A stretch of DNA of 38,087 nucleotides from the NCBI GenBank assembly GCA_044868695.1, contig JBIOWP010000074.1, forward strand, positions 1 through 38,087. The letters run 5' to 3'. The position numbers and the translations under genes were made by a program. Numbering within the stretch: the stretch's first letter is position 1; each line of letters starts with the position of its first letter. The notes under the pieces are model-generated. The model was not told the DNA's origin and ran no database searches. It saw only the letters and a list, made by a program, of their open reading frames with translations. Positions 4,007 through 37,053 of the stretch are shown here, in pieces. The DNA is from a bacterium. Lineage in GTDB: Bacteria; Sysuimicrobiota; Sysuimicrobiia; Sysuimicrobiales; Kaftiobacteriaceae.

Positions 4007-4363
4007 CTATTTGCGCAGGTAACTGTCTTCCTTATTAATCCAGTCCTGGCGCGGCGGGCTGAAGAAGTCCATCTCCACAGTCTCTTCCAGCATCTCCGCA
4101 CCGTGAGGCACACCGCCGGGGATCAACAGGACTTCACCGGGCCGCAGTGTCAGTTCCCGGTCCACCAGGTTGAACCGCATGAGGCCTGAGATGCAGTACG
4201 TGAGCTGCTCGTTCTCATGCTGGTGGACCGGGACGACGGCGCCCTTCTTGAATTCCAGGTACGCGGCCATCAGCCGGTCCCCCCACAGCATCCGCCGCCG
4301 GATCTGGGGATTGAGTGATTCGGCGTCCAGCTCGAGCAGGCGCTTGTGGACGACAGATTTCAT
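4007..4363 (-). CDS. Cupin-domain protein (cupin_2)
   Basis: VPVHQHENEQLTYCISG and IPGGVPHG cupin metal motifs; D-x-F-S-P-P-R-x-D-W tail; AGGAGGT SD before ATG 4363. Confidence 0.88.
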   Translation of the reverse strand: MKSVVHKRLLELDAESLNPQIRRRMLWGDRLMAAYLEFKKGAVVPVHQHENEQLTYCISGLMRFNLVDRELTLRPGEVLLIPGGVPHGAEMLEETVEMDFFSPPRQDWINKEDSYLRK

Positions 4364-26402: not shown

Positions 26403-29400
26403 CTATCGCGAAGCGTTCTTGCGTGCAACCGCGAGGCGTTCGATCTGGTCGATGTCGCCGAGCTGCTCCAGGATACGTTCCGCTGTCGCGAATGCCCCGC
26501 TCTCGCCTGCGACGATGGCGTGTTCACACCGCGCGCGCGCCTCATAGGGGACAGCTTTGGTTTCCTGGAACAGCGTCGCGGCCCGGCCGAGCTCATCCGC
26601 ATCTGCGGCCATCACGCCCAGCGCCCTCCGGGCCTGCGCTTCGAGCGGCCGGTAGTGGAACTCAGCCGCGAACGCGGCGATCCGGCGGACGAGGTCAGGC
26701 GCCACCGGGTGCCGGTAGTCCGTCAGGAGCGACAGCGTACGCTCGTAATGCTCGATCGATGGGAGATGGCGAAAGGGGAACCTCCCGACATAGTGCGTCA
26801 TCGCCTCAAAGTTCAAGCGGAGATAGGGTTCGATACGCGTGACCACGGGAGAATCGGTGCGAGCCGTTCGAAATTTCTGGAGGATTTCGTCAATAATCTG
26901 TCCGAATTCCTCGATGGTTCGTTCGTCGCGCCGGGCCCGAGCGACGTCCAGCGCGGCCACGAACCCCCGGACCGCGTAGCCCGCAGCACTCCGGTTGCTG
27001 TCGATCCAGAGATGCTTCGCTTTGACCGCAGCGGCCAGCGCGTCGTCCCAGTTCCCTCGCAGGGTCAGCGCGTAGATCCGCCAGGCCGCCACGTGGAGCG
27101 CCCAGTGGGGAATTTGCCCCGGCTGGACGATCGCCAGCCCGGCGGCCGAAATCCCCTCGGCTTTTTCGAGTTCTCCGCCCAGCGCGCAGCCCCAGGCGAC
27201 CATCGCATGCGCGTCGACGCGCTCGACCAAATCCAGCCGGTCCTGAAGGCTTAGTCGCCGTTCGGCCAGTTGGATCACCTCCGGCCAGGCTCCTCTCGCC
27301 TCTGCGCATCCGCTGAGCGCGTCCAGGGCCATGCTCCGCAGCTTGGTATCGTCGAGTTGTTCGGCGATGTCGAGACCGCGGCGGGCACCCGCTTCGGCCG
27401 TCCGGATGTCCTCCTCGGTGGAGTCCGCCAGCCGCCAGAACGGGTAGAAGGCGTCGCCGATGAGGAAGGCCGCGATCGCCCGCCGATCGGTCGCCCGCGC
27501 CATGAGGGCGTGGCCCTCTGCCCGCAACCGGGCCATGGTTTCATCCGACGGTCGGGAGGCAACGGATCCCTGGCTTCTCATAAACAGGGTGATGAGTTTG
27601 GCCAGGACCCGGAGCTCCTGGTCGGGAGCGCGTCTGGCTTCCCTGTGCAGCCTCAGCGCGGTCCCATACGCTTCGGCGCCGGGGTCACCACCGAGCTGGA
27701 CGTCGCCCAGTCGCTCATACAGGTCGGGGTGGTCGGCGGGGTCGGCGAGTTCGATCGCGGCGCGCAAGTGTCTCGCGGCTTCAGCGTGAGCGGCCCCAGC
27801 CTGAGCCATGCCCGCCGCGCGTCCAAGCCAGTGGACGGCGCGTGCACGAATCTTCTCGTCGCCGGCCGCCTGCCGCAGCGTGGAGCCCAGGTGCGCCGCT
27901 TCCCGGTAGTGGTAGGCGATGAGCTCGGCCAGCGCGTCTTCCCTGCCGGCTGCCTGCCCTTCCATCCATTCCGCGGCGGTCGCGTGGAGGGCGGCGCGTT
28001 CACTTCGCGGCAGCGTTTGGTAGGCGACTTCCCGGATCAGGATGTGCCGGAAGCTGAACCGTTCCGCGTCGGCGGGCCGGATGAGGTCTCGCTCCACCAA
28101 ACGGTCGGTGAGCCCCGCGACCTGTCCGGCGAGGGCGGAGTCGAGGGCGGCGATACCGGGAACCAAAAAGCTCCGCCCAAAGACCGCACCGAGCTGCAGG
28201 ACCCGCCGCTCGGCGTGCTGCAGCAGGTCGAGACGCGCGAGCACCGTCGCCTGGACGGTGTCCGGCAGTTGGGCAAGAATGTGCGAGACGGCGGCTTCAT
28301 CATCGAGGGAGCCGACGCGGTCCATGACGGACCGGACGATTTCTCCGGCATAGAATGGGTTGCCGTCGGCCCGCTCCACGACCCGGGCAACAACCTGCGA
28401 CGACGACCGGCCCAGGAGATGCTCGACGAGAGCCTCCACCGCCGTGTCCGGGAGCGGCTCGAGCGCGAGCGAGACGTAATTCCGCCGTCCTCCGCCCCAT
28501 GCGGTGCGCCGGTCTAACAGTTCGGGGCGTGCCAGGGCAATGATCAGAACGGATGACTCCCCCCGCGGCTGCATGACGAATTCGACCAGATCGAGCAGGC
28601 TGTCGCTCGACCAGTGGAGATCTTCAAACACCAGGACAAGCGGCCGGCGCCGGGACGCCGACTCGACGAGGGTCCGCCACGCCCCAAAGAGGGCGTCACG
28701 GTCGATCGCTTCGAGTTCGGCGGCGCCGACGGTAGCGGCAAGCAGGTCGGCCATCCGCTGCGGCTGCTCCACCCCGGCATCGTGGGTCCACGCGGAGACC
28801 GCCGCGCGAATGCGTTCAGGCGGCGCGTCTTCTGGAATGCCGATGATGCGGAACAGCACGGCGCGCAGCGGCCAGTACGTCAGTCGCTGGCCGTACGGGA
28901 GGCACTGGGCGATGGCGATGCTGGCGTGAGGTGCCAGCGATGGGAGGCGGTCCAGAAACTCTTCGAGCAGGCGCGTCTTGCCTGTCCCGGCGGGGGCCAC
29001 CAGGCTGACCAGGAAGGGACGGCGCTGAGCAAACGCCTGGCGGGCCACCACTTCCAGGTGCGCGAGCTCCGTATCCCGCCCGATCAGAGGGCTCCGTCTC
29101 ACCGCGCGGGCCGCGCGTCCCAGGACGGTGACGGCTCTGACCGGCTGCGCCTTGCCCTTCGTCGCCACCTCCACGGGCTGGCTGAAGGCAAAGGCCTCGC
29201 CCGCGGCGCGGGCTGTTCGCTCGCTGCAGAGAATGCTCCAGGAATCTGCGGCCTGCTGGAGCCTGGCCGCCACGTTCACCGCGTCGCCGGTGATCAGGAA
29301 ATCCCCCGCTGCGGCGTCGCGGGCGGCGACCACTTCTCCTGTGTTGACCCCCACGCGAACCGGCAGCCGCTCCCGGAGGGTCGAATCCTGCCGCAGGCGG

Positions 29401-29657
29401 TCCCGCAATTCCAGGGCCGCATTGAGGGCTCGCTGACCATCGTCCCCGTGCGCCTGGGGCAGCCCAAAGACGGCCATCACGGCGTCCCCGATGAACTTCT
29501 CGAGCGTGCCTCCGTGGGCGGCGATGACCTCCTTGCAGATCGAGTAGAATTGGCTCATCAGTGCGCGGACGTCCTCTGGATCCAGCGTCTCGCCAAGCGC
29601 CGTGGACCCGGTGACGTCCGCAAAGAGGATTGTGACAAGCCGTCGTTCTTCGGCCAT
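26403..29657 (-). CDS. Class III adenylate/guanylate cyclase - STAND (AAA_16-type) ATPase - helical/TPR-like protein
   Basis: ERRLVTILFADVTGST, EKFIGDAVMA, RVGVNTG, GDAVNVAARL; Walker A APAGTGKT, Walker B VFEDLHW, GNPFY, FRHILIREVAY. The ORF-track extension to 30104 is antisense to the NIPSNAP gene. Confidence 0.92.
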   Translation of the reverse strand: MAEERRLVTILFADVTGSTALGETLDPEDVRALMSQFYSICKEVIAAHGGTLEKFIGDAVMAVFGLPQAHGDDGQRALNAALELRDRLRQDSTLRERLPVRVGVNTGEVVAARDAAAGDFLITGDAVNVAARLQQAADSWSILCSERTARAAGEAFAFSQPVEVATKGKAQPVRAVTVLGRAARAVRRSPLIGRDTELAHLEVVARQAFAQRRPFLVSLVAPAGTGKTRLLEEFLDRLPSLAPHASIAIAQCLPYGQRLTYWPLRAVLFRIIGIPEDAPPERIRAAVSAWTHDAGVEQPQRMADLLAATVGAAELEAIDRDALFGAWRTLVESASRRRPLVLVFEDLHWSSDSLLDLVEFVMQPRGESSVLIIALARPELLDRRTAWGGGRRNYVSLALEPLPDTAVEALVEHLLGRSSSQVVARVVERADGNPFYAGEIVRSVMDRVGSLDDEAAVSHILAQLPDTVQATVLARLDLLQHAERRVLQLGAVFGRSFLVPGIAALDSALAGQVAGLTDRLVERDLIRPADAERFSFRHILIREVAYQTLPRSERAALHATAAEWMEGQAAGREDALAELIAYHYREAAHLGSTLRQAAGDEKIRARAVHWLGRAAGMAQAGAAHAEAARHLRAAIELADPADHPDLYERLGDVQLGGDPGAEAYGTALRLHREARRAPDQELRVLAKLITLFMRSQGSVASRPSDETMARLRAEGHALMARATDRRAIAAFLIGDAFYPFWRLADSTEEDIRTAEAGARRGLDIAEQLDDTKLRSMALDALSGCAEARGAWPEVIQLAERRLSLQDRLDLVERVDAHAMVAWGCALGGELEKAEGISAAGLAIVQPGQIPHWALHVAAWRIYALTLRGNWDDALAAAVKAKHLWIDSNRSAAGYAVRGFVAALDVARARRDERTIEEFGQIIDEILQKFRTARTDSPVVTRIEPYLRLNFEAMTHYVGRFPFRHLPSIEHYERTLSLLTDYRHPVAPDLVRRIAAFAAEFHYRPLEAQARRALGVMAADADELGRAATLFQETKAVPYEARARCEHAIVAGESGAFATAERILEQLGDIDQIERLAVARKNASR

Positions 29658-29762
29658 CTGCGTTTGATGGAGCACGAGACCGTCGAGATTAGGTAGGCAG
29701 TTCTGTTCCAGCGAAAGGATTCCTGGACGGATGCGGCGCGATCGCCGACGGGAGTGATGAGG

Positions 29763-30062
29763 ATGAGGACCGAATTGCGAGTGTACACGATCAACCGGGG
29801 GAAGATGGACGAATTCGTCCGCGCCTGGAAGACGGGCGTCTATCCCCTGCGGCAGAAGGTCGGTTTCCGCATCGACGGCGCCTGGGTGCTCAAAGAGCGA
29901 AACCAGTTTGTGTGGCTGATGAGCTACGACGGCGACGACTGGGAGGCCAAAGACAGCGCGTACTATGCGTCTCCGGAACGGAAGGCGCTCAACCCCGATC
30001 CCGCCCAGTTCATCGCGCTGGCGGAGCACTGGTTTCTGACCGAGGTCGTCCCGCGCCGGTGA
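29763..30062 (+). CDS. NIPSNAP family protein
   Basis: ELRVYTINRGKMDEF...W, FVWL.SY, YYASPER; GGGAG SD. Alternative starts at 29754 and 29757. Confidence 0.8.
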   Translation: MRTELRVYTINRGKMDEFVRAWKTGVYPLRQKVGFRIDGAWVLKERNQFVWLMSYDGDDWEAKDSAYYASPERKALNPDPAQFIALAEHWFLTEVVPRR

Positions 30063-30181
30063 CTGTACGCGTGGAGCGCGCCAACCCCCACTACGTCCCG
30101 GCAAACTGGGACATCCAACCGCTCTTTTCGTGACGTCCGGCTCATGGAGAGCTGTGGCATCGGTGTTAGTCTAAGAGGGAA

Positions 30182-30937: not shown

Positions 30938-31078
30938 CACTGGCGAACGTGGAGGGCCGGCCTTCTCATGACGGCGCCCTCGCGGGCCAATCCCCCTTCC
31001 CAAGGCCGGAATCGCGCCTCACAAAGGATGCGGCCACCGGTCACCGAACGTCACCGTGACGAGTCGGGGGGACGCGTC

Positions 31079-33841
31079 GTGCCCGAGTTGCCTACAGGAA
31101 CCGTCACCTTTCTGTTTACCGACATCGAGGGGAGTACCAGGTTGTGGGAGGAGTATCCCCAGGCGATGCGGGAGGCCCTGGCACGCCATGACGCGCTGGT
31201 CCGCGCCGCGATCGAGGGGCACCACGGCCATGTATTCAAAACGATGGGTGATGCGTTCGACGCGGTGTTCGCGGACACGGGCGATGCCGTGTCCGCCGCC
31301 GCGGCCATTCAGCGTGCGCTGCAGGCGGAACACTGGGGGGTTCCGGGCGGGCTGCGGGCGCGGATTGCGCTGCATACCGGCGCTGCCGAGGGAAGGGAGC
31401 GCGACTACTTCGGACCATCGCTGAACCGCGCCGCGCGCCTGCTGGCCGCTGGTCACGGGGAGCAAACCCTCATCTCTGAGGCCACCCGGGCCCTGATCGA
31501 ATCATCTCTGCCGGAGGGCGTCGGCCTCCGCGACCTCGGCCAGCATCGCCTGAAAGACCTCGCGCACCCTGAGCACGTGTTTCAGCTGCTGGTGGCGGGA
31601 CTGCGTGACGACTTTCCCCCGCTGCGGTCGCTGAACGTGCTGCCCAACAACCTCCCACGCCAGCTCACCAGCTTCATCGGCCGGACCAGAGAACTGGCCG
31701 AGGTGAAGTCGCATCTGGGGAAGACATCGCTGCTCACGCTCACCGGCTCGGGCGGCGCGGGGAAGACCCGGCTGGCCCTGCAGGCGGCCGCGGATCTCAT
31801 TGAGTCATTCGCCGACGGCGTGTGGCTGGCTGAACTGACACCGCTCACCGATCCGGCGCTGGTCACCCAGACGGTAGCCACCGCGGTCGGTGTGCGCGAA
31901 GAACACCGTCCGCTCATCCAGACCCTGACCGACTCCCTGGTCCCAAAATCCACCCTCCTGGTCATCGACAACTGCGAGCATGTGCTGGCGGGATGCGCGG
32001 CCCTCGTGCAGACGCTGCTGCAGGTATGCCCGCGGCTGCGGGTGCTGGCGACCAGCCAGGAGGCGCTCGGCGTTGGCGGGGAGATCACCTACCGCGTGCC
32101 GTCGCTGTCGATGCCGGATCCGGACCGTCTGCCTCCTCTTGACCATCTGACCCAGTTCGAGTCCATCGGGCTGTTCGTCGAGCGCGCGGGGGCGAGCCGG
32201 CCGGGGTTTGTGCTTACGGCAGCTAATGCGTCCGCGGTCGCGCAGATCTGCGCCCGGCTCGACGGTATCCCGCTGGCGATCGAGCTGGCTGCCGCCCGGG
32301 TGAGGGTGCTCTCCGTCGAGGAAATTGCCGGCCGGCTGGACGACCGGTTCAAGCTGTTGACTGCCGGCAGCCGTACTGCGCCTCCCCGCCACCAGACGCT
32401 CCGGGCTGCGCTGGACTGGAGCCACGACCTGCTGGCCGGCAAGGAACAGGTCCTCCTGCGACGGCTGTCCGTCTTTGCGGGCGGCTGGACCCTTCCCGCG
32501 GCCGAGGCGGTGTGCGCGGACGAACGGTGCGAGGCCTCCGAGGTGCTGGACGTGCTGACCCGGCTGGTCGACCGTTCGCTGGTCATCGTCGGCGACCGCG
32601 AGCAACGCGAGACCTGGTACCGGATGCTCGACACCGTGCGCCTGTACGCGAGGGAGAAGCTCGCGGCAGCTGGCGAAGAAGAGGCGGTGCGGCGCCGGCA
32701 CCGTGATTGGTACCTGCAGTTTGTGGAGCAGGCGGAGCCCCAACTCCAGGGACCGGCTCTCGAATCCTGGCTGGGTCGCCTCGAGGCCGAGCACGACAAC
32801 ATCCGCGCCGCGCTCGAGTGGTGCAAGGCCGCGGAACCACACCCCGAGTACGGTCTGCGTCTCGCCGCCTCGATGTGGCACTTCTGGGAGGTGCGGGGAT
32901 ATTGGACCGAGGGCCGCGAGTGGCTGGAGGGTGCACTGACCAAAGGGCGCGAGGTGCTGATCCCCCCGCGGGTGAGAGCGCTGAACGGTGCGGCCAATCT
33001 GGCGTTCTTCCAGGGCGACTACGCGCGGGCGGTGGCATTGGGCGAAGAAAGTCTGGACCTCAGTCGCAAGCTTGGGGACAAGCGCGGGATCGCGTCGTGC
33101 CTGAACATTCTCGGCATGGAGGCCTGCCGCCTGGAGAAGTACGACCGGGCGGCGCAGCTCGGAGAAGAGAGCCTGGCGCTCAGCAGCGAAGTGGGCGACC
33201 GGTGGGGCGTGGCCGGCGCCCGGCTGGTCCTCGGGCTCGTCACACGCGGGCAGGGGGACTACGCGCGCGCCGCGACGCTGCTGGAGGAAAGCCTTGAGCA
33301 GTTCCGGCAGCTGGGAGACAAATGGGCGATTGCGATTACGCTGAATAACCTCGGCCTGGTGATGAGGGAGAAAGGTGAGTATGCCCGCGCGAGGGCGCTG
33401 CTCGAGGAGACTCTGGCGCTCTTCCGTGATCTCGGCGACCGGTGGGGGATCGCGTTCTCACTGGCCAACCTGGGCATCGTCGCCTGGAACGGTCAGGAGT
33501 ATGAGCGGGCCGCCGGCATGTACAGGGAAAGTCTGATCTTACGGAAGGAACTGCGCGATCGCCGCGGCATTTCCACCAGCCTGACCGGCCTGGCGGTCGT
33601 CGAGTCGGCGCTCGGTCGCGCGGAGCACGCCGCCGTGCTGTACGGAGCGGCCGAGGCCCTGCGCGAGGCCCTAGGCATCCCGCCGCCGCCGTTCATCCGG
33701 GACGACTACGACCGGCACGTGGCCGCGGCGCGGCAGCAGTTAGGCGACGCTGAGTTTGCGGCGGCTTGGCAGCGGGGCCGCGCGCTGACCCCCGAAGAGG
33801 CGATCGACTATGCGGTCGCCCAGCCGTCGTCCGTCAGGTAG
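31079..33841 (+). CDS. Class III adenylate cyclase - NB-ARC-like STAND ATPase - TPR protein
   Basis: LPTGTVTFLFTDIEGST, KTMGDAF, DYFGPSLNRAARL; NNLP..LTSFIGR, Walker A GSGGAGKT, Walker B LVIDNCEH, LDGIPLAIELAAAR; repeated GD.WG.A..L.NLG TPRs. Alternative ATG at 31028. Confidence 0.93.
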   Translation: MPELPTGTVTFLFTDIEGSTRLWEEYPQAMREALARHDALVRAAIEGHHGHVFKTMGDAFDAVFADTGDAVSAAAAIQRALQAEHWGVPGGLRARIALHTGAAEGRERDYFGPSLNRAARLLAAGHGEQTLISEATRALIESSLPEGVGLRDLGQHRLKDLAHPEHVFQLLVAGLRDDFPPLRSLNVLPNNLPRQLTSFIGRTRELAEVKSHLGKTSLLTLTGSGGAGKTRLALQAAADLIESFADGVWLAELTPLTDPALVTQTVATAVGVREEHRPLIQTLTDSLVPKSTLLVIDNCEHVLAGCAALVQTLLQVCPRLRVLATSQEALGVGGEITYRVPSLSMPDPDRLPPLDHLTQFESIGLFVERAGASRPGFVLTAANASAVAQICARLDGIPLAIELAAARVRVLSVEEIAGRLDDRFKLLTAGSRTAPPRHQTLRAALDWSHDLLAGKEQVLLRRLSVFAGGWTLPAAEAVCADERCEASEVLDVLTRLVDRSLVIVGDREQRETWYRMLDTVRLYAREKLAAAGEEEAVRRRHRDWYLQFVEQAEPQLQGPALESWLGRLEAEHDNIRAALEWCKAAEPHPEYGLRLAASMWHFWEVRGYWTEGREWLEGALTKGREVLIPPRVRALNGAANLAFFQGDYARAVALGEESLDLSRKLGDKRGIASCLNILGMEACRLEKYDRAAQLGEESLALSSEVGDRWGVAGARLVLGLVTRGQGDYARAATLLEESLEQFRQLGDKWAIAITLNNLGLVMREKGEYARARALLEETLALFRDLGDRWGIAFSLANLGIVAWNGQEYERAAGMYRESLILRKELRDRRGISTSLTGLAVVESALGRAEHAAVLYGAAEALREALGIPPPPFIRDDYDRHVAAARQQLGDAEFAAAWQRGRALTPEEAIDYAVAQPSSVR

Positions 33842-35276
33842 CCGATCCCCCGGTCCCGCGAGGGGCAGTTCGCCGCTCTCTTCCGGCGGGTTCAGTGTAA
33901 TCCCCGTTTCCTCCGCCCGTGGGCTTGGAAGCGTCCAGGTGTAGCACAATCCCGCCGTCCTCGTCGGGGCGGGTCTTCTCGAACACGGCCCGCCAGTCGG
34001 GCCGCAGTCTCTGCTCCCGGATCAGCCACGTCTCAAGCGCACGCACGACCTTCGGGTCGAACTGCGTCTCCACGTGGCGATACAGCTCCGTCATCGCGAC
34101 CTCGTGAGGCTTGTGCGCCCGGTGCGGGCGGTCGGATGTGATCGTATCGTAGGCGTCGCACGCCGCGAGGATGCGGCCACCCAGGCCGATGTCGTCGCTC
34201 TTCAGCCCAAGCGGGTATCCACGGCCGTCCAGCCGCTCGTGATGCTCGGCGAGGGTAGCGAGGTGTGGTCTCAGAACGGACAGGTGGCTGAGGATTCGCC
34301 GGCCGGCCTCCACGTGGGCTTCCATCTCCGCCCGCTCTCGGGCGGTGAGCTCCGCGGCCTTCAAGAGCACGCCGTCGCGTACCACGATCTTGCCGACGTC
34401 GTGGACGCGGGCCACCGCTTTGATCATGAGCGCCTGCTCTTCGGGGACGTTCAGCATGCGGGCGACGCCGTAGCTCATCTCTGAGACGCGCAGCGAGTGG
34501 TTGCCGGTCGTGTCGTCGCGCATGTCAATCACGTCAGCGAGGGCCGCCAGCATCGATTCCGCCTCGGTGCGCAGATGCGTGTACCGTTCGTACCCAAGCT
34601 TGACCATGAAGAGGGGCGGCACCAGGATCGCTGCAGCAGAAGGGTGAATGAGCCAGAGCTGCGCCATCACCACGCTGATGGCGATGAGCGTGAGGTTGAC
34701 CTGGGCGGAGTCTCGGAACCCCCAGGCCACCATCTGGGCAAGCCGGATCCGGTCGATGCGTGAAAGGACCAGCATCAGCAGCGTCAAGTTCATCACGTAG
34801 TATGCGACGCCGGCGGCAAGCTGGGCGAAGATCGTTCTCCAAACCGGCGGAAACGCCGGGTGCAGATGCTGCAGCTGGGCCGTGACGACCGCGAATGCGA
34901 TCGCGGCCGCCCCCGTGGATATCGCATACATCGAGGCGTTGAACAGGAGCTTGTAGTACGGTTTGTTGGACGCTAAGTCGGCGACAATGACCGCTAGCAC
35001 GGCCAGGAGAAGCGCGGTCGGCCAGTCGAACGTGTAGAGCGTCAACAGGATGATGGTAATTGTCAAACTCTCGTCCTTGTGGGCGGCGCGGCCCAGCGTG
35101 AAGGGCACCGGCTTGAGCTCGCTGATGATCGCGAGCACAAGCAGCATCAGGAACCAGCCTGGGCCGATGTCGAACAGACGCGGCGTGGTCGACAGGAGGG
35201 AGTGAATGGCCCCCCACGCCGTTATGGCGCCCCCGAGCCACAAGAGAGGAAGGATCACCCGCAGTTGGCCGGTCAT
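33834..35276 (-). CDS. Membrane-sensor HD-GYP phosphodiesterase (multi-TM N-terminus, MASE9-like)
   Basis: About 7-8 hydrophobic segments including K..FN; HD-GYP motifs HSLRV, HDVGK, HHERLDGRGYP.GL, CDAYD.ITSDRP. Start overlaps the DUF5317 stop (ATGA). The MASE9 label is tentative. Confidence 0.92.
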   Translation of the reverse strand: MTGQLRVILPLLWLGGAITAWGAIHSLLSTTPRLFDIGPGWFLMLLVLAIISELKPVPFTLGRAAHKDESLTITIILLTLYTFDWPTALLLAVLAVIVADLASNKPYYKLLFNASMYAISTGAAAIAFAVVTAQLQHLHPAFPPVWRTIFAQLAAGVAYYVMNLTLLMLVLSRIDRIRLAQMVAWGFRDSAQVNLTLIAISVVMAQLWLIHPSAAAILVPPLFMVKLGYERYTHLRTEAESMLAALADVIDMRDDTTGNHSLRVSEMSYGVARMLNVPEEQALMIKAVARVHDVGKIVVRDGVLLKAAELTARERAEMEAHVEAGRRILSHLSVLRPHLATLAEHHERLDGRGYPLGLKSDDIGLGGRILAACDAYDTITSDRPHRAHKPHEVAMTELYRHVETQFDPKVVRALETWLIREQRLRPDWRAVFEKTRPDEDGGIVLHLDASKPTGGGNGDYTEPAGRERRTAPRGTGGSAT

Positions 35277-35833
35277 CTGGCCTCCCCCGCGCCACGATGG
35301 GCACGCATCAATCGCTGGACCAGCGCGAATGCGCCGATGGCGACCAGCGAGTCACCGCCGCTAAATTCCCGTCTCAGCGGAAGCCACTCAGGAGTTTGGA
35401 AGACGTCTCCAAGGGCCCACAGCCGTGTCCCCTGGTCGAGCAGCACCGAGTTATTATGGACGCCTGCCGCGGCGACCCGAGCGTCCGCCACCCCCTCGAG
35501 CGCAGATGGCGCGACAGGCATGAAGCCGCCGTTGGCAAGGATGACGGCGGTGTTGGCGGCGAGGCCCAGGCCGATCAGCCAGATCCATGACGTGCGTCGA
35601 TTGGACCAGACAAACGTGAGCATGATGAGATACGACACGATATGGAGCACGGCCGCAAACATCCGGGCCGGATGTGAGGCGCTTTCATCGGGGAGGAAGG
35701 CGAGGATCTGCGCACCGAGCGCAAGGAATGGCAAAGCCGGAAGCCGCCACCGGTGGCCGCCAAACGCGCTGATGCGCCCGCCGCGGACCACCCCGACCAG
35801 AAGGGCCAGGATGACTACACTGAGGAGGAGCAT
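35273..35833 (-). CDS. DUF5317 family membrane protein (putative LspA-like peptidase)
   Basis: G..RGGR, GLAAN..VI.ANGG.MPV, L..LGD, FS.GD pattern; GGAGGG SD before ATG 35833. Confidence 0.85.
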   Translation of the reverse strand: MLLLSVVILALLVGVVRGGRISAFGGHRWRLPALPFLALGAQILAFLPDESASHPARMFAAVLHIVSYLIMLTFVWSNRRTSWIWLIGLGLAANTAVILANGGFMPVAPSALEGVADARVAAAGVHNNSVLLDQGTRLWALGDVFQTPEWLPLRREFSGGDSLVAIGAFALVQRLMRAHRGAGEAR

Positions 35834-35850
35834 GATGCCCTCCAATAGGA

Positions 35851-35887
35851 GGCGGCCGACCGCGTCATCCTGCCACGGCCGGCCGCC
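35851..35887 (-). other. Stem-loop between the micropeptide gene and the DUF5317 gene
   Basis: Minus-strand RNA GGCGGCCGGCCGUG...CGCGGUCGGCCGCC forms a 14-bp stem. Both non-Watson-Crick positions are G-U pairs only on the minus strand. Confidence 0.65.
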
Positions 35888-35894
35888 GAAACGC

Positions 35895-35987
35895 CTACCG
35901 CCACTTCCCGCCTGCCCCGCTCGCGATGATCAGCGAAGCGAACATCAGGAGCGTCACAAGCAGGCCAAGAAATCTCCTCCACCGCAT
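35895..35987 (-). CDS. 30-aa micropeptide MRWRRFLGLLVTLLMFASLIIASGAGGKWR (putative signalling-peptide precursor)
   Basis: ATG 35987 preceded by a G-rich SD tract (GGGGAGGGGGGTGGG); TAG at 35897-35895; basic N-terminus, hydrophobic core and short polar tail; first gene of the DUF5317-HD-GYP operon. Confidence 0.75.
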   Translation of the reverse strand: MRWRRFLGLLVTLLMFASLIIASGAGGKWR

Positions 35988-36216
35988 TCCGGCCCACCCC
36001 CCTCCCCGACCTTCCGTCCAACCCTGACTACCTGACATTGCCTGAGGAGTACGTCGCTGCCCAAGAGGAAACGGTAGAAAGACCCCTATATAGGTCACAT
36101 CGGCAGGATTCGTGGAGGCTAAAGTCCGAGCGGGCAGGAACCAGGCACCCGAAGGTGGCAAATCGGGACCTGGAGCCGAACGAGCCGCCCCCATTCGGCA
36201 TGAAAGGACCAGCACG

Positions 36217-37053
36217 ATGACGCTCCAACCAAACAGCGTGGCCCTCGTCACCGGCGCGGCGCGCGGCCTGGGATGGGGCATTGCCCGGGCGTTTGGCCGC
36301 GCGGGCGCGCGGGTCTGTGTCACTGATATTGATCAGAACGAGCTGACGCGCTGCGTCCGCGACCTGGCCGCCGACGGCGCGGCATGTCAAGTCTATCGCT
36401 CAGATGTCGCCGACCTCACCGAGTGCAAGCGTGTCGTGCAGAAGATTGTGGATCGCTGGGGCCGGCTGGATGTCGTGGTGCACAACGCGATCTACATGCC
36501 GCTGGTCGAGTTCGAGGCGACCACGCCGGACGACTGGACCCGCCAGCTGAATGTTGGCATCGGCGGGCTGTACAATTGCGCGTCCGCCGCCTGGAAGCAG
36601 ATGAAGGCGCAGGGCGCGGGCCACATCATCGGAATCGCCAGCGGTTCGAGTCTGCGCGGTTACCGCCAGGAAGTCGCGTACTGCACGGTTAAGCACGGCA
36701 TCGAGGGGTTTGTGAAAGCGCTCGCGCTCGAAGCCAAACCCCACAACATCGCCCTCAATACCATCGGTCCCGGCGCACGGATCAAGCCGACGCGCATGAC
36801 GTGGACCGAGTACGACCAGGTCCCGGAGGACGTGCGCGCGGGCTGGGCGGATCCGATCGAACTCGGCCGGGCGTGGGTGTGGCTGGCCTCGCAGCCGCCG
36901 GCGCGGTTCAGCGGCTATCGCTTTGACGCCGCGCGGGTTGTCGAGACCCTCGCCCGAGAGGGAAACGACTTCGAGTTCACCCCTGAGAAGGTGACGCTGT
37001 ATCCGGACGATTTTCGCGTCCGGGCGGAGTGGTACCGTGAAAACGATCTATGA
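36217..37053 (+). CDS. SDR family oxidoreductase
   Basis: TGAARGLG.GIA, DVAD, VHNA, YCTVK; AAAGGA SD before ATG 36217. Confidence 0.88.
   Translation: MTLQPNSVALVTGAARGLGWGIARAFGRAGARVCVTDIDQNELTRCVRDLAADGAACQVYRSDVADLTECKRVVQKIVDRWGRLDVVVHNAIYMPLVEFEATTPDDWTRQLNVGIGGLYNCASAAWKQMKAQGAGHIIGIASGSSLRGYRQEVAYCTVKHGIEGFVKALALEAKPHNIALNTIGPGARIKPTRMTWTEYDQVPEDVRAGWADPIELGRAWVWLASQPPARFSGYRFDAARVVETLAREGNDFEFTPEKVTLYPDDFRVRAEWYRENDL

Follow-up and report, generated by a model that had tools for sequence, protein, structure and literature searches.

Can a peptide of a few residues serve as a signal that is read directly by a phosphodiesterase? This question is raised by a 38,087-nt contig from a bacterium of the Sysuimicrobiota (GenBank assembly GCA_044868695.1, contig JBIOWP010000074.1; the whole stretch is called the window), which carries three genes on its minus strand: a 30-codon open reading frame (ORF), a gene of the family DUF5317 and a gene encoding a 480-aa membrane HD-GYP protein. 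The original prediction, made from the sequence alone, took these for a precursor, its processing enzyme and its receptor. We found that this module, made up of a very small gene that has escaped annotation, a probable membrane protease and a membrane sensor that degrades cyclic di-GMP (c-di-GMP), is real, widespread and conserved in several phyla. It looks like an undescribed use of a short peptide as a signal, and we give about an even chance to the reading in which DUF5317 releases a peptide of 5-7 residues that is sensed by the MASE9 domain of the HD-GYP protein.

The micropeptide gene and its conservation

The ORF has the composition first described for it, with an MRWRR start, a hydrophobic helix and the end SGAGGKWR, and it forms the tail of a longer frame (35895-36323). 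The 61-nt gap to the DUF5317 ATG and the overlap of the DUF5317 TGA with the ATG of the sensor gene as ATGA were likewise confirmed. The micropeptide had no match in Pfam or NCBIfam, and the ESM Atlas returned only unnamed clusters of 29-32 aa at 0.87-0.89, a lead at most. Its ribosome-binding site is of modest quality, with GGAGG 13 nt before the start and no more than 4 nt matching at -16..-4; close relatives display GGAGG or AAGGAGG at a similar position, but the count of such sites among relatives is weak evidence because peptide starts were picked by the best Shine-Dalgarno match.

Judged by its conservation, the 30-codon ORF is a real gene. A fixed rule, written after the upstream ORFs had been inspected, returned similar ORFs heading many DUF5317 operons, with two matches in 635 kb of opposite strand and one in 190 kb around lspA genes. 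A peptide profile was trained on 37 peptides from loci L001-L067 and then applied to 80 held-out DUF5317 loci, comprising 60 of the 61 matches of a Bacillota-centred phylum sample and 20 picked from the 44 of a Deinococcus-centred sample; these loci include kin and hence are not independent. The profile detected the peptide in 51 of the 80 loci (38/60 and 13/20), always upstream and on the same strand; no match was found downstream, on the opposite strand or in 30 lspA control loci. All of these 51 loci carry a MASE9-like domain. The whole genome containing the window yielded a single match, at the window locus (E 8e-7). The ratio of non-synonymous to synonymous differences (pN/pS) against eight relatives was 0.51 in frame, and 1.04 and 2.17 in the shifted frames.

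Conserved small ORFs ending in G-A-x-x-x-W had been expected upstream of other DUF5317 genes, and were found there, ending in G-A-x(4-5) and adjoining membrane HD-GYP or GGDEF sensors. Among 62 distinct MASE-linked peptides, 58 were divisible at G-A; 49 of these 58 tails had 4-5 residues, 48 contained Trp and 57 an aromatic residue. The motif with Gly 24 and Ala 25 was fitted by 58 of 63 MASE-class peptides, both positions having been selection criteria.

Peptide genes were found in tandem duplicate upstream of DUF5317 at L004, L007, L014 and L029, with identical or slightly different tails. At L112 (~4200-4240), L113 and L128 (family f5, own phylum) a five-codon ORF reading M/V-N-K-W-G-stop precedes the full peptide gene, which starts with MNKWG and ends with GKWG. 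The five-codon ORF, which has its own ribosome-binding site in L112 and L128, is possibly a collapsed tandem copy.

Genomic contexts of DUF5317

The DUF5317 family comprises 2,257 representatives at E<=0.001 and was present in 41 of 101 and 55 of 151 genomes of two phylum samples; Thermus thermophilus is another bacterium that encodes it. Three contexts were distinguished. In the first, the peptide gene and DUF5317 are accompanied by a MASE9-HD-GYP or GGDEF sensor, and both gene orders occur. At L144, L169, L170 and L177 a single peptide gene is followed by two tandem MASE9-HD-GYP genes and then by a single DUF5317.

The second context, from Chloroflexota, consists of 23 loci with the peptide and DUF5317 and without MASE9, of which 21 have a MalT-like TPR/BTAD gene directly upstream. 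The MASE-less peptides read G-A-P in 25 of 26 cases, with longer Gly-rich tails. Four genomes (completeness not stated) encode the peptide and DUF5317 with no MASE9-like match, while genomes G095 and G099 carry both operon types, each type with its own peptide and DUF5317. In one locus of Chloroflexota (L012:4632-5282), DUF5317 is directly followed by a gene for signal peptidase I (S26).

The third context was found in eight clostridial loci, where DUF5317 is followed in order by a gene for 155-179 aa that matches no family, AgrB, AgrD and a GGDEF/HD-GYP gene. In C. perfringens, CPE1563-CPE1562-agrB-agrD are co-transcribed according to the accessible part of PMC2706048. Exact matches to two primers of that study were located in genome G459, where the CPE1563 primer occupies 1533964-1533987 and the DUF5317 match starts at 1533986; about 1 kb further on, at 1534974-1535556, come the agrB primer and AgrB. 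Since this CPE1563 primer adjoins the DUF5317 match and has agrB beyond it, CPE1563, the first gene of the published C. perfringens agr operon, is a DUF5317 gene. In the five genomes tested, which were five of the six primer hits, three of eight AgrB matches had no adjacent DUF5317.

DUF5317 was also identified in 22 of 23 genomes of family f4. The orphan copies of this family (L115-L123, L125-L127, L129 and L130) are mostly located directly upstream of the mraZ-rsmH-ftsI cell-division cluster.

DUF5317 as a candidate aspartyl peptidase

Among 113 DUF5317 homologs the residues Q42, N78, G90, N101, P106, D143, S158, G160 and D161 were invariant, and D143 and D161 were kept in 162 of 163 loci from all contexts, the one exception being a truncated row. 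The structural model (predicted local distance difference test, pLDDT, 86) contains five long helices, and the positive-inside rule would place both Asp residues on the outer face.

The layout recalls the lipoprotein signal peptidase LspA (peptidase family A8, PF01252; structures 5DIR, 6RYO/6RYP and 9EMZ). In both proteins a pair of Asp with a spacing of 18 residues and similar flanking sequences precedes the last helix, and the preceding helix contains G-x3-N-x7-G; the order of the helices is compatible (model 26-186 on chain 3-160), and positions 21-23 of the precursor read L-A-G/A/S, which is lipobox-like. An hhalign comparison of 419 DUF5317 domains with 30 LspA sequences covered 38 columns (probability 10.7, P 0.003), pairing LgD with VvDF and SiGD with NvAD of LspA, so that both Asp align to invariant LspA Asp columns. 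With a local LspA HMM the 419 domains scored a median of 1.9 bits (best 10.3), whereas reversed domains gave -0.7 and 84 membrane segments from the window's own genome gave -0.3. In a structural search, 6ryp_A (Z 5.2, root-mean-square deviation, rmsd, 5.7) and 5dir_A (Z 5.2, rmsd 6.2) were matched over 100 aligned residues each. Foldseek returned nothing at E<=0.001, a second structural comparison with 281 chains gave a designed bundle as the best match (Z 6.3), and the ESM Atlas contained no usable named match for DUF5317.

DUF5317 differs from LspA in having one more helix at the N-terminus and an insert of 35 residues, and it does not belong to PF01252, which matched 2 of 113 members at a best E of 1.6. 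LspA substrates carry diacylglyceryl-Cys at +1, whereas the window peptide has no Cys, and the genome encodes a separate LspA. We therefore describe DUF5317 as having an apparently LspA-like active-site layout, with homology unproven, and not as a member of A8. The invariant Asp pair and the place of the gene in agrBD operons provide indirect support for DUF5317 as a candidate peptidase. Prediction of the DUF5317-precursor complex gave 0.26 and 0.22 against a mark of 0.32, which is not evidence either way.

A pepsin alignment (E 0.36), which fell on a non-catalytic part, was regarded as a chance match. A GxGD-type reading, as in prepilin peptidases, was also considered and set aside, as the first Asp is only 18 residues upstream, a better fit to the LspA spacing.

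The sensor domain

The 480-aa protein contains HDVGK at 292, HVEAG at 321, DAYD at 374 and RPHR at 383, all of them motifs known from HD-GYP domains. HHERLDGRGYP at 345 corresponds to the motif HHExh[D/N]GxGYP given in the accessible part of the Galperin preprint (bioRxiv 10.1101/2021.11.05.467447). The metal-binding motifs are intact as predicted, with HD, HHExxDGxGYP and the downstream Asp and Arg motifs all there.

The N-terminal domain of the window sensor matched MASE9 (PF20972) at 20.3-22 bits, below the gathering cut-off of 24.3, and 79 of 93 aligned relatives matched it at E<=0.1 (best 4e-26). Its AlphaFold2 model (pLDDT 92.5) retrieved S components of energy-coupling factor (ECF) transporters or the like at ranks 1-15, the next row having Z 7.9. 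The best match, 5kbw_A, had Z 15.6 and rmsd 3.0 with 162 of 170 residues aligned, and Foldseek found the same S-component proteins at a best E of 4e-3. As modelled, the MASE9 sensor has the six-helix ECF S-component fold. The fold is shared with RibU, FolT, BioY, ThiT and CbiM (Z 11-15.6), and weak Pfam matches to S components occur in 4 and 2 of the 93 members; in contrast to S components, the domain is fused to an enzyme and the operon has no ECF ATPase module. The fold probably also occurs in related sensor domains such as 5TMR-LYT. S components have a small-ligand pocket open to the outside, and such a pocket would therefore suit a peptide of 600-730 Da or a metabolite. A sensor taking an outside ligand fits the modelled fold.

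MASE9-HD-GYP phosphodiesterases with the same domain architecture, such as TM1467 of T. maritima and HdgA of S. venezuelae, are treated in the preprint, which gives the MASE9 ligand as unknown and proposes binding within the membrane. Its accessible main text mentions neither a DUF5317 partner nor the fold, and the word 'peptide' is absent from it. The literature on TM1466-TM1468 covered by our search held nothing beyond this preprint, its supplements (Figure S5 on MASE9) being outside coverage. The four best MASE9 matches, found regardless of DUF5317, all had the peptide upstream.

A second strong MASE9-like domain (151.7 bits) is encoded in the window's own genome, in a 1080-aa frame with a GGDEF motif (L132, G000:C72:30441-33911). 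It has no adjacent peptide and could read the same peptide in trans.

Tail variation and candidate cut site

In 11 pairs with a DUF5317 identity of at least 0.8, identity was 0.55 in the tail, 0.88 in the leader, 0.72 in MASE9 and 0.81 in HD-GYP. The tail appears to change faster than the leader and MASE9 faster than HD-GYP, as would be expected of signal variants, though C-terminal ends vary anyway. The tail type also differs between MASE9 and non-MASE9 loci.

For six of eight AgrD leaders, the highest-scoring placement on the peptide profile set A|C against G-A|x, and for the other two this placement came within 1 bit of the best (shuffle p of the fit 0.001-0.11). Clostridial AgrD leaders are removed before Cys, as reported in the accessible part of PMC8251862. 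This alignment and the clostridial leader removal together suggest a cut after G-A and therefore GGKWR as the product, so that a cut after A25 is quite plausible. The lipobox-like positions 21-23 (L/I/V in 51, A in 57 and G/A/S in 54 of 58 peptides) would instead yield GAGGKWR through a cut after S23, which we consider possible and less probable, and a cut after G24, giving AGGKWR, is improbable. The products first proposed, GAGGKWR and AGGKWR, are thus retained as candidates, while the favoured GGKWR was not among them. The calculated [M+H]+ values of the three candidate tails are 603.34, 674.37 and 731.40.

Regulation of the operon

Of 20 loci scanned, 6 (from five genomes) have a c-di-GMP riboswitch immediately ahead of the peptide gene, and four c-di-GMP riboswitches are present elsewhere in the genome of the window. 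Their occurrence in relatives and in this genome points to c-di-GMP as the probable HD-GYP substrate. Within the window, positions 33000-37000 contained no riboswitch or other Rfam family (one match, E 3.1), and no sigma-70 promoter or terminator was found there. The 61-nt gap between micropeptide and DUF5317 folds at -36.5 kcal/mol (z -3.9). A stable hairpin in the same gap was found in two of five relatives (z -3.6 in L062 and -3.9 in L002; -1.5, -0.3 and -1.3 in the other three loci). It may raise the amount of peptide mRNA over that of the downstream mRNA. Riboswitches and hairpin fit a feedback under either main reading, with a released or an intact peptide.

The motif TGGCAC-N5-TTGC, which we take to be sigma-54-like, was observed between the peptide and HD-GYP genes of L111 and L113, and one copy is located upstream on the opposite strand.

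Proposed mechanism and alternatives

The 30-aa precursor would insert into the membrane so that the basic N-terminus stays in the cell and the tail faces outward. DUF5317, with D143 and D161 on the outer face, would act like a lipoprotein signal peptidase and cut at the end of the helix. The freed linear peptide would bind the outward pocket of the S-component-fold MASE9 and thereby change HD-GYP activity, and hence c-di-GMP, in either direction. In relatives, the upstream c-di-GMP riboswitch would close a feedback loop. The peptide may travel between cells or act on the same cell.

This reading is preferred because DUF5317 recurs with three precursor types (G-A-x(4-5) with MASE9, G-A-P without MASE9, and AgrB-AgrD), because the Asp pair is kept, tails change faster than leaders and the sensor fold is a ligand-binding one, and because of the genomes holding peptide and DUF5317 without a MASE9-like match or, as in G095 and G099, a separate pair for each operon type. 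We tentatively suggest, with more doubt than confidence, that DUF5317 is a new LspA-like aspartyl leader peptidase family serving several peptide-signal systems, including leader removal in clostridial agr, and that here it frees a linear five-residue pheromone read by a vitamin-transporter-fold receptor wired to c-di-GMP breakdown. If true, this would represent cell-to-cell peptide signalling without a kinase across thermophiles, anaerobes and uncultured phyla, and would give a function to a widespread family of unknown role. It would also supply the unknown MASE9 ligand, linking peptide signalling directly to c-di-GMP, and provide a candidate leader-removing protease for clostridial agr operons, whose first gene is listed as hypothetical in the accessible part of PMC2706048 (2009).

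Several observations weigh against this proposal. No peptide was called in 29 of the 80 held-out loci. The f4 orphans keep both Asp and are located before the mraZ cluster without HD-GYP in the regions read, and 14 f4 genomes gave no peptide match better than E 0.038; these orphans weigh against a universal link between DUF5317 and a peptide substrate. A tree built by a quick method, from which the window's own row is absent, suggests few events, with agr forming one clade, the TPR type having one origin and the f4 orphans forming one clade. A BTAD regulator is also present in 3 of 67 MASE9 loci, and for this reason may be a mere activator. The LspA likeness is weak (hhalign probability ~11%, Z 5.2), the LspA chains ranking 12-13 of 48,161 and being tied with unrelated helical bundles. 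S components bind vitamins and metals, according to the titles of structure entries. The likeness of AgrD leaders may be a generic signal-peptide pattern, and co-variation between tail and sensor was not detected among 45 non-independent pairs (partial rho -0.04). In C. perfringens, agr complementation needed all four genes (PMC2706048, accessible part). This does not show a requirement for DUF5317, because the shorter plasmids may lack the promoter and the disruption lay outside the upstream genes on the chromosome. In addition, the linear form of a clostridial agr peptide was inactive (PMC8251862, accessible part).

The alternative that survives best, although we consider it unlikely, is that the 30-mer stays intact in the membrane like MgrB and SafA, its helix and Trp tail docking on MASE9 and/or DUF5317 and tuning the phosphodiesterase as an internal feedback, while the role of DUF5317 would be that of a partner, or no more than breakdown of the peptide. 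The riboswitches directly upstream of the peptide agree with this, as do the conserved helix and the terminal Trp, which beside a basic residue also suits a membrane-interface anchor. Riboswitch-controlled small membrane proteins of a different, 58-aa family provide a precedent (PMC13724677, accessible part). However, an intact regulator leaves unexplained the 23 loci with peptide and DUF5317 and no MASE9, the inclusion of DUF5317 in agrBD operons, the almost invariant motif of small residues at the helix end and the faster change of the tail.

It is rather improbable that the signal is released by the housekeeping signal peptidase I, with DUF5317 as a non-catalytic co-receptor, carrier or exporter binding the peptide by acidic and polar residues. 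S23-G24-A25 does fit the -3/-1 small-residue rule, the LspA match is statistically weak, and some DUF5317 domains are part of long fusions (up to 927 aa; one EAL-annotated protein). Yet Pro directly follows G-A in nearly all MASE-less peptides (25 of 26) and blocks signal peptidase I at that site, and the two invariant Asp, whose spacing and flanks resemble those of LspA, look catalytic. Still less probable is that MASE9 senses a small metabolite as S components do, with peptide and DUF5317 forming a separate, merely co-regulated module that feeds, for example, TPR regulators: the fold and the MASE9-like domains without adjacent peptide (L132, L223-L230) would agree with it, but all 51 held-out peptides were at MASE9 loci, the four best MASE9 matches all follow a peptide, and the tail type is not the same at loci with and without MASE9.

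Relation to known systems

The trio had been likened to AgrD/AgrB/AgrC. The parallel of precursor, processing and receptor stands, whereas the equation of DUF5317 with AgrB was abandoned: DUF5317 has no AgrB match and adjoins AgrB in clostridia, and therefore fits a second, leader-removing step. The AgrB protease family (PF04647) was not detected in the operon, whose genes matched DUF5317, MASE9/HD and, for the micropeptide, no family at all. A scan of 62 peptides brought up 15 families at E<=1, and the AgrD family TIGR04223, which matched all three clostridial AgrD tested, was not among them. In the window peptide only five residues follow G-A and Cys is absent; it lacks the Cys/Ser core and acidic follower of AgrD, so no ring would form. 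Neither the AgrC kinase nor the AgrA regulator was found in the operon, the output domain being HD-GYP. The window module is not a member of the agr family.

Shared with agr (AgrD/AgrB/AgrC/AgrA, with the leader protease MroQ) are a membrane-leader precursor, a short aromatic core, membrane processing and a membrane receptor, and clostridial agrBD operons share DUF5317 itself, as the first gene of operons ending in a GGDEF/HD-GYP gene. The window receptor differs as a one-component phosphodiesterase with an S-component fold. By analogy, the module would work most like a linear, kinase-free cousin of agr, while failing agr membership.

The RRNPP systems (Rap/Phr, NprR/NprX, PlcR/PapR) likewise have a short linear peptide from a signal-peptide-like precursor, and the Chloroflexota variant adjoins TPR regulators. 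In contrast to these systems, the neighbour in the window is a membrane sensor, and the variant's TPR proteins belong with MalT-like STAND/BTAD proteins and not with RRNPP. In the searched literature, with subscription journals outside coverage, no paper named DUF5317 and no description of the module was found under agrD with HD-GYP, small protein with c-di-GMP, or S-component sensors.

Features and neighbourhood of the window locus

Table 1. Positions of the operon features in the window
Feature	Position	Strand	Basis or remark
Micropeptide, 30 aa, precursor-like	35895..35987	-	Basic N-region, hydrophobic helix, A-x-G-A motif (A22, G24, A25), tail GGKWR
Micropeptide ribosome-binding site, G-rich (GGAGG then GGGG)	35997..36005	-	Read from sequence
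GC-rich hairpin between micropeptide and DUF5317, without U-run	35851..35888	-	RNA folding of the 61-nt gap
DUF5317 (PF17248), 186-aa membrane protein, candidate aspartyl peptidase	35273..35833	-	Pfam E 1e-29
D143 and D161 codons	35407-35405; 35353-35351	-	Putative catalytic pair of DUF5317
MASE9-type membrane sensor domain, ECF S-component fold	34566..35240	-	AlphaFold2 model and structural search
HD-GYP phosphodiesterase domain, residues 246-410 of the 33834-35276 gene	34047..34541	-	Pfam HD_5 E 1.8e-28 and motifs

The operon is flanked by an SDR gene and a gene for a cyclase-STAND-TPR protein. Two large cyclase-STAND proteins adjoin it, 30968-33841 (+), whose product scans as Guanylate_cyc, AAA and TPR, and 26403-30104 (-), whose product was judged by eye only; neither displays any sign of belonging to the module. 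The nearest labelled relatives are records of Armatimonadota and Candidatus Sysuimicrobiota.

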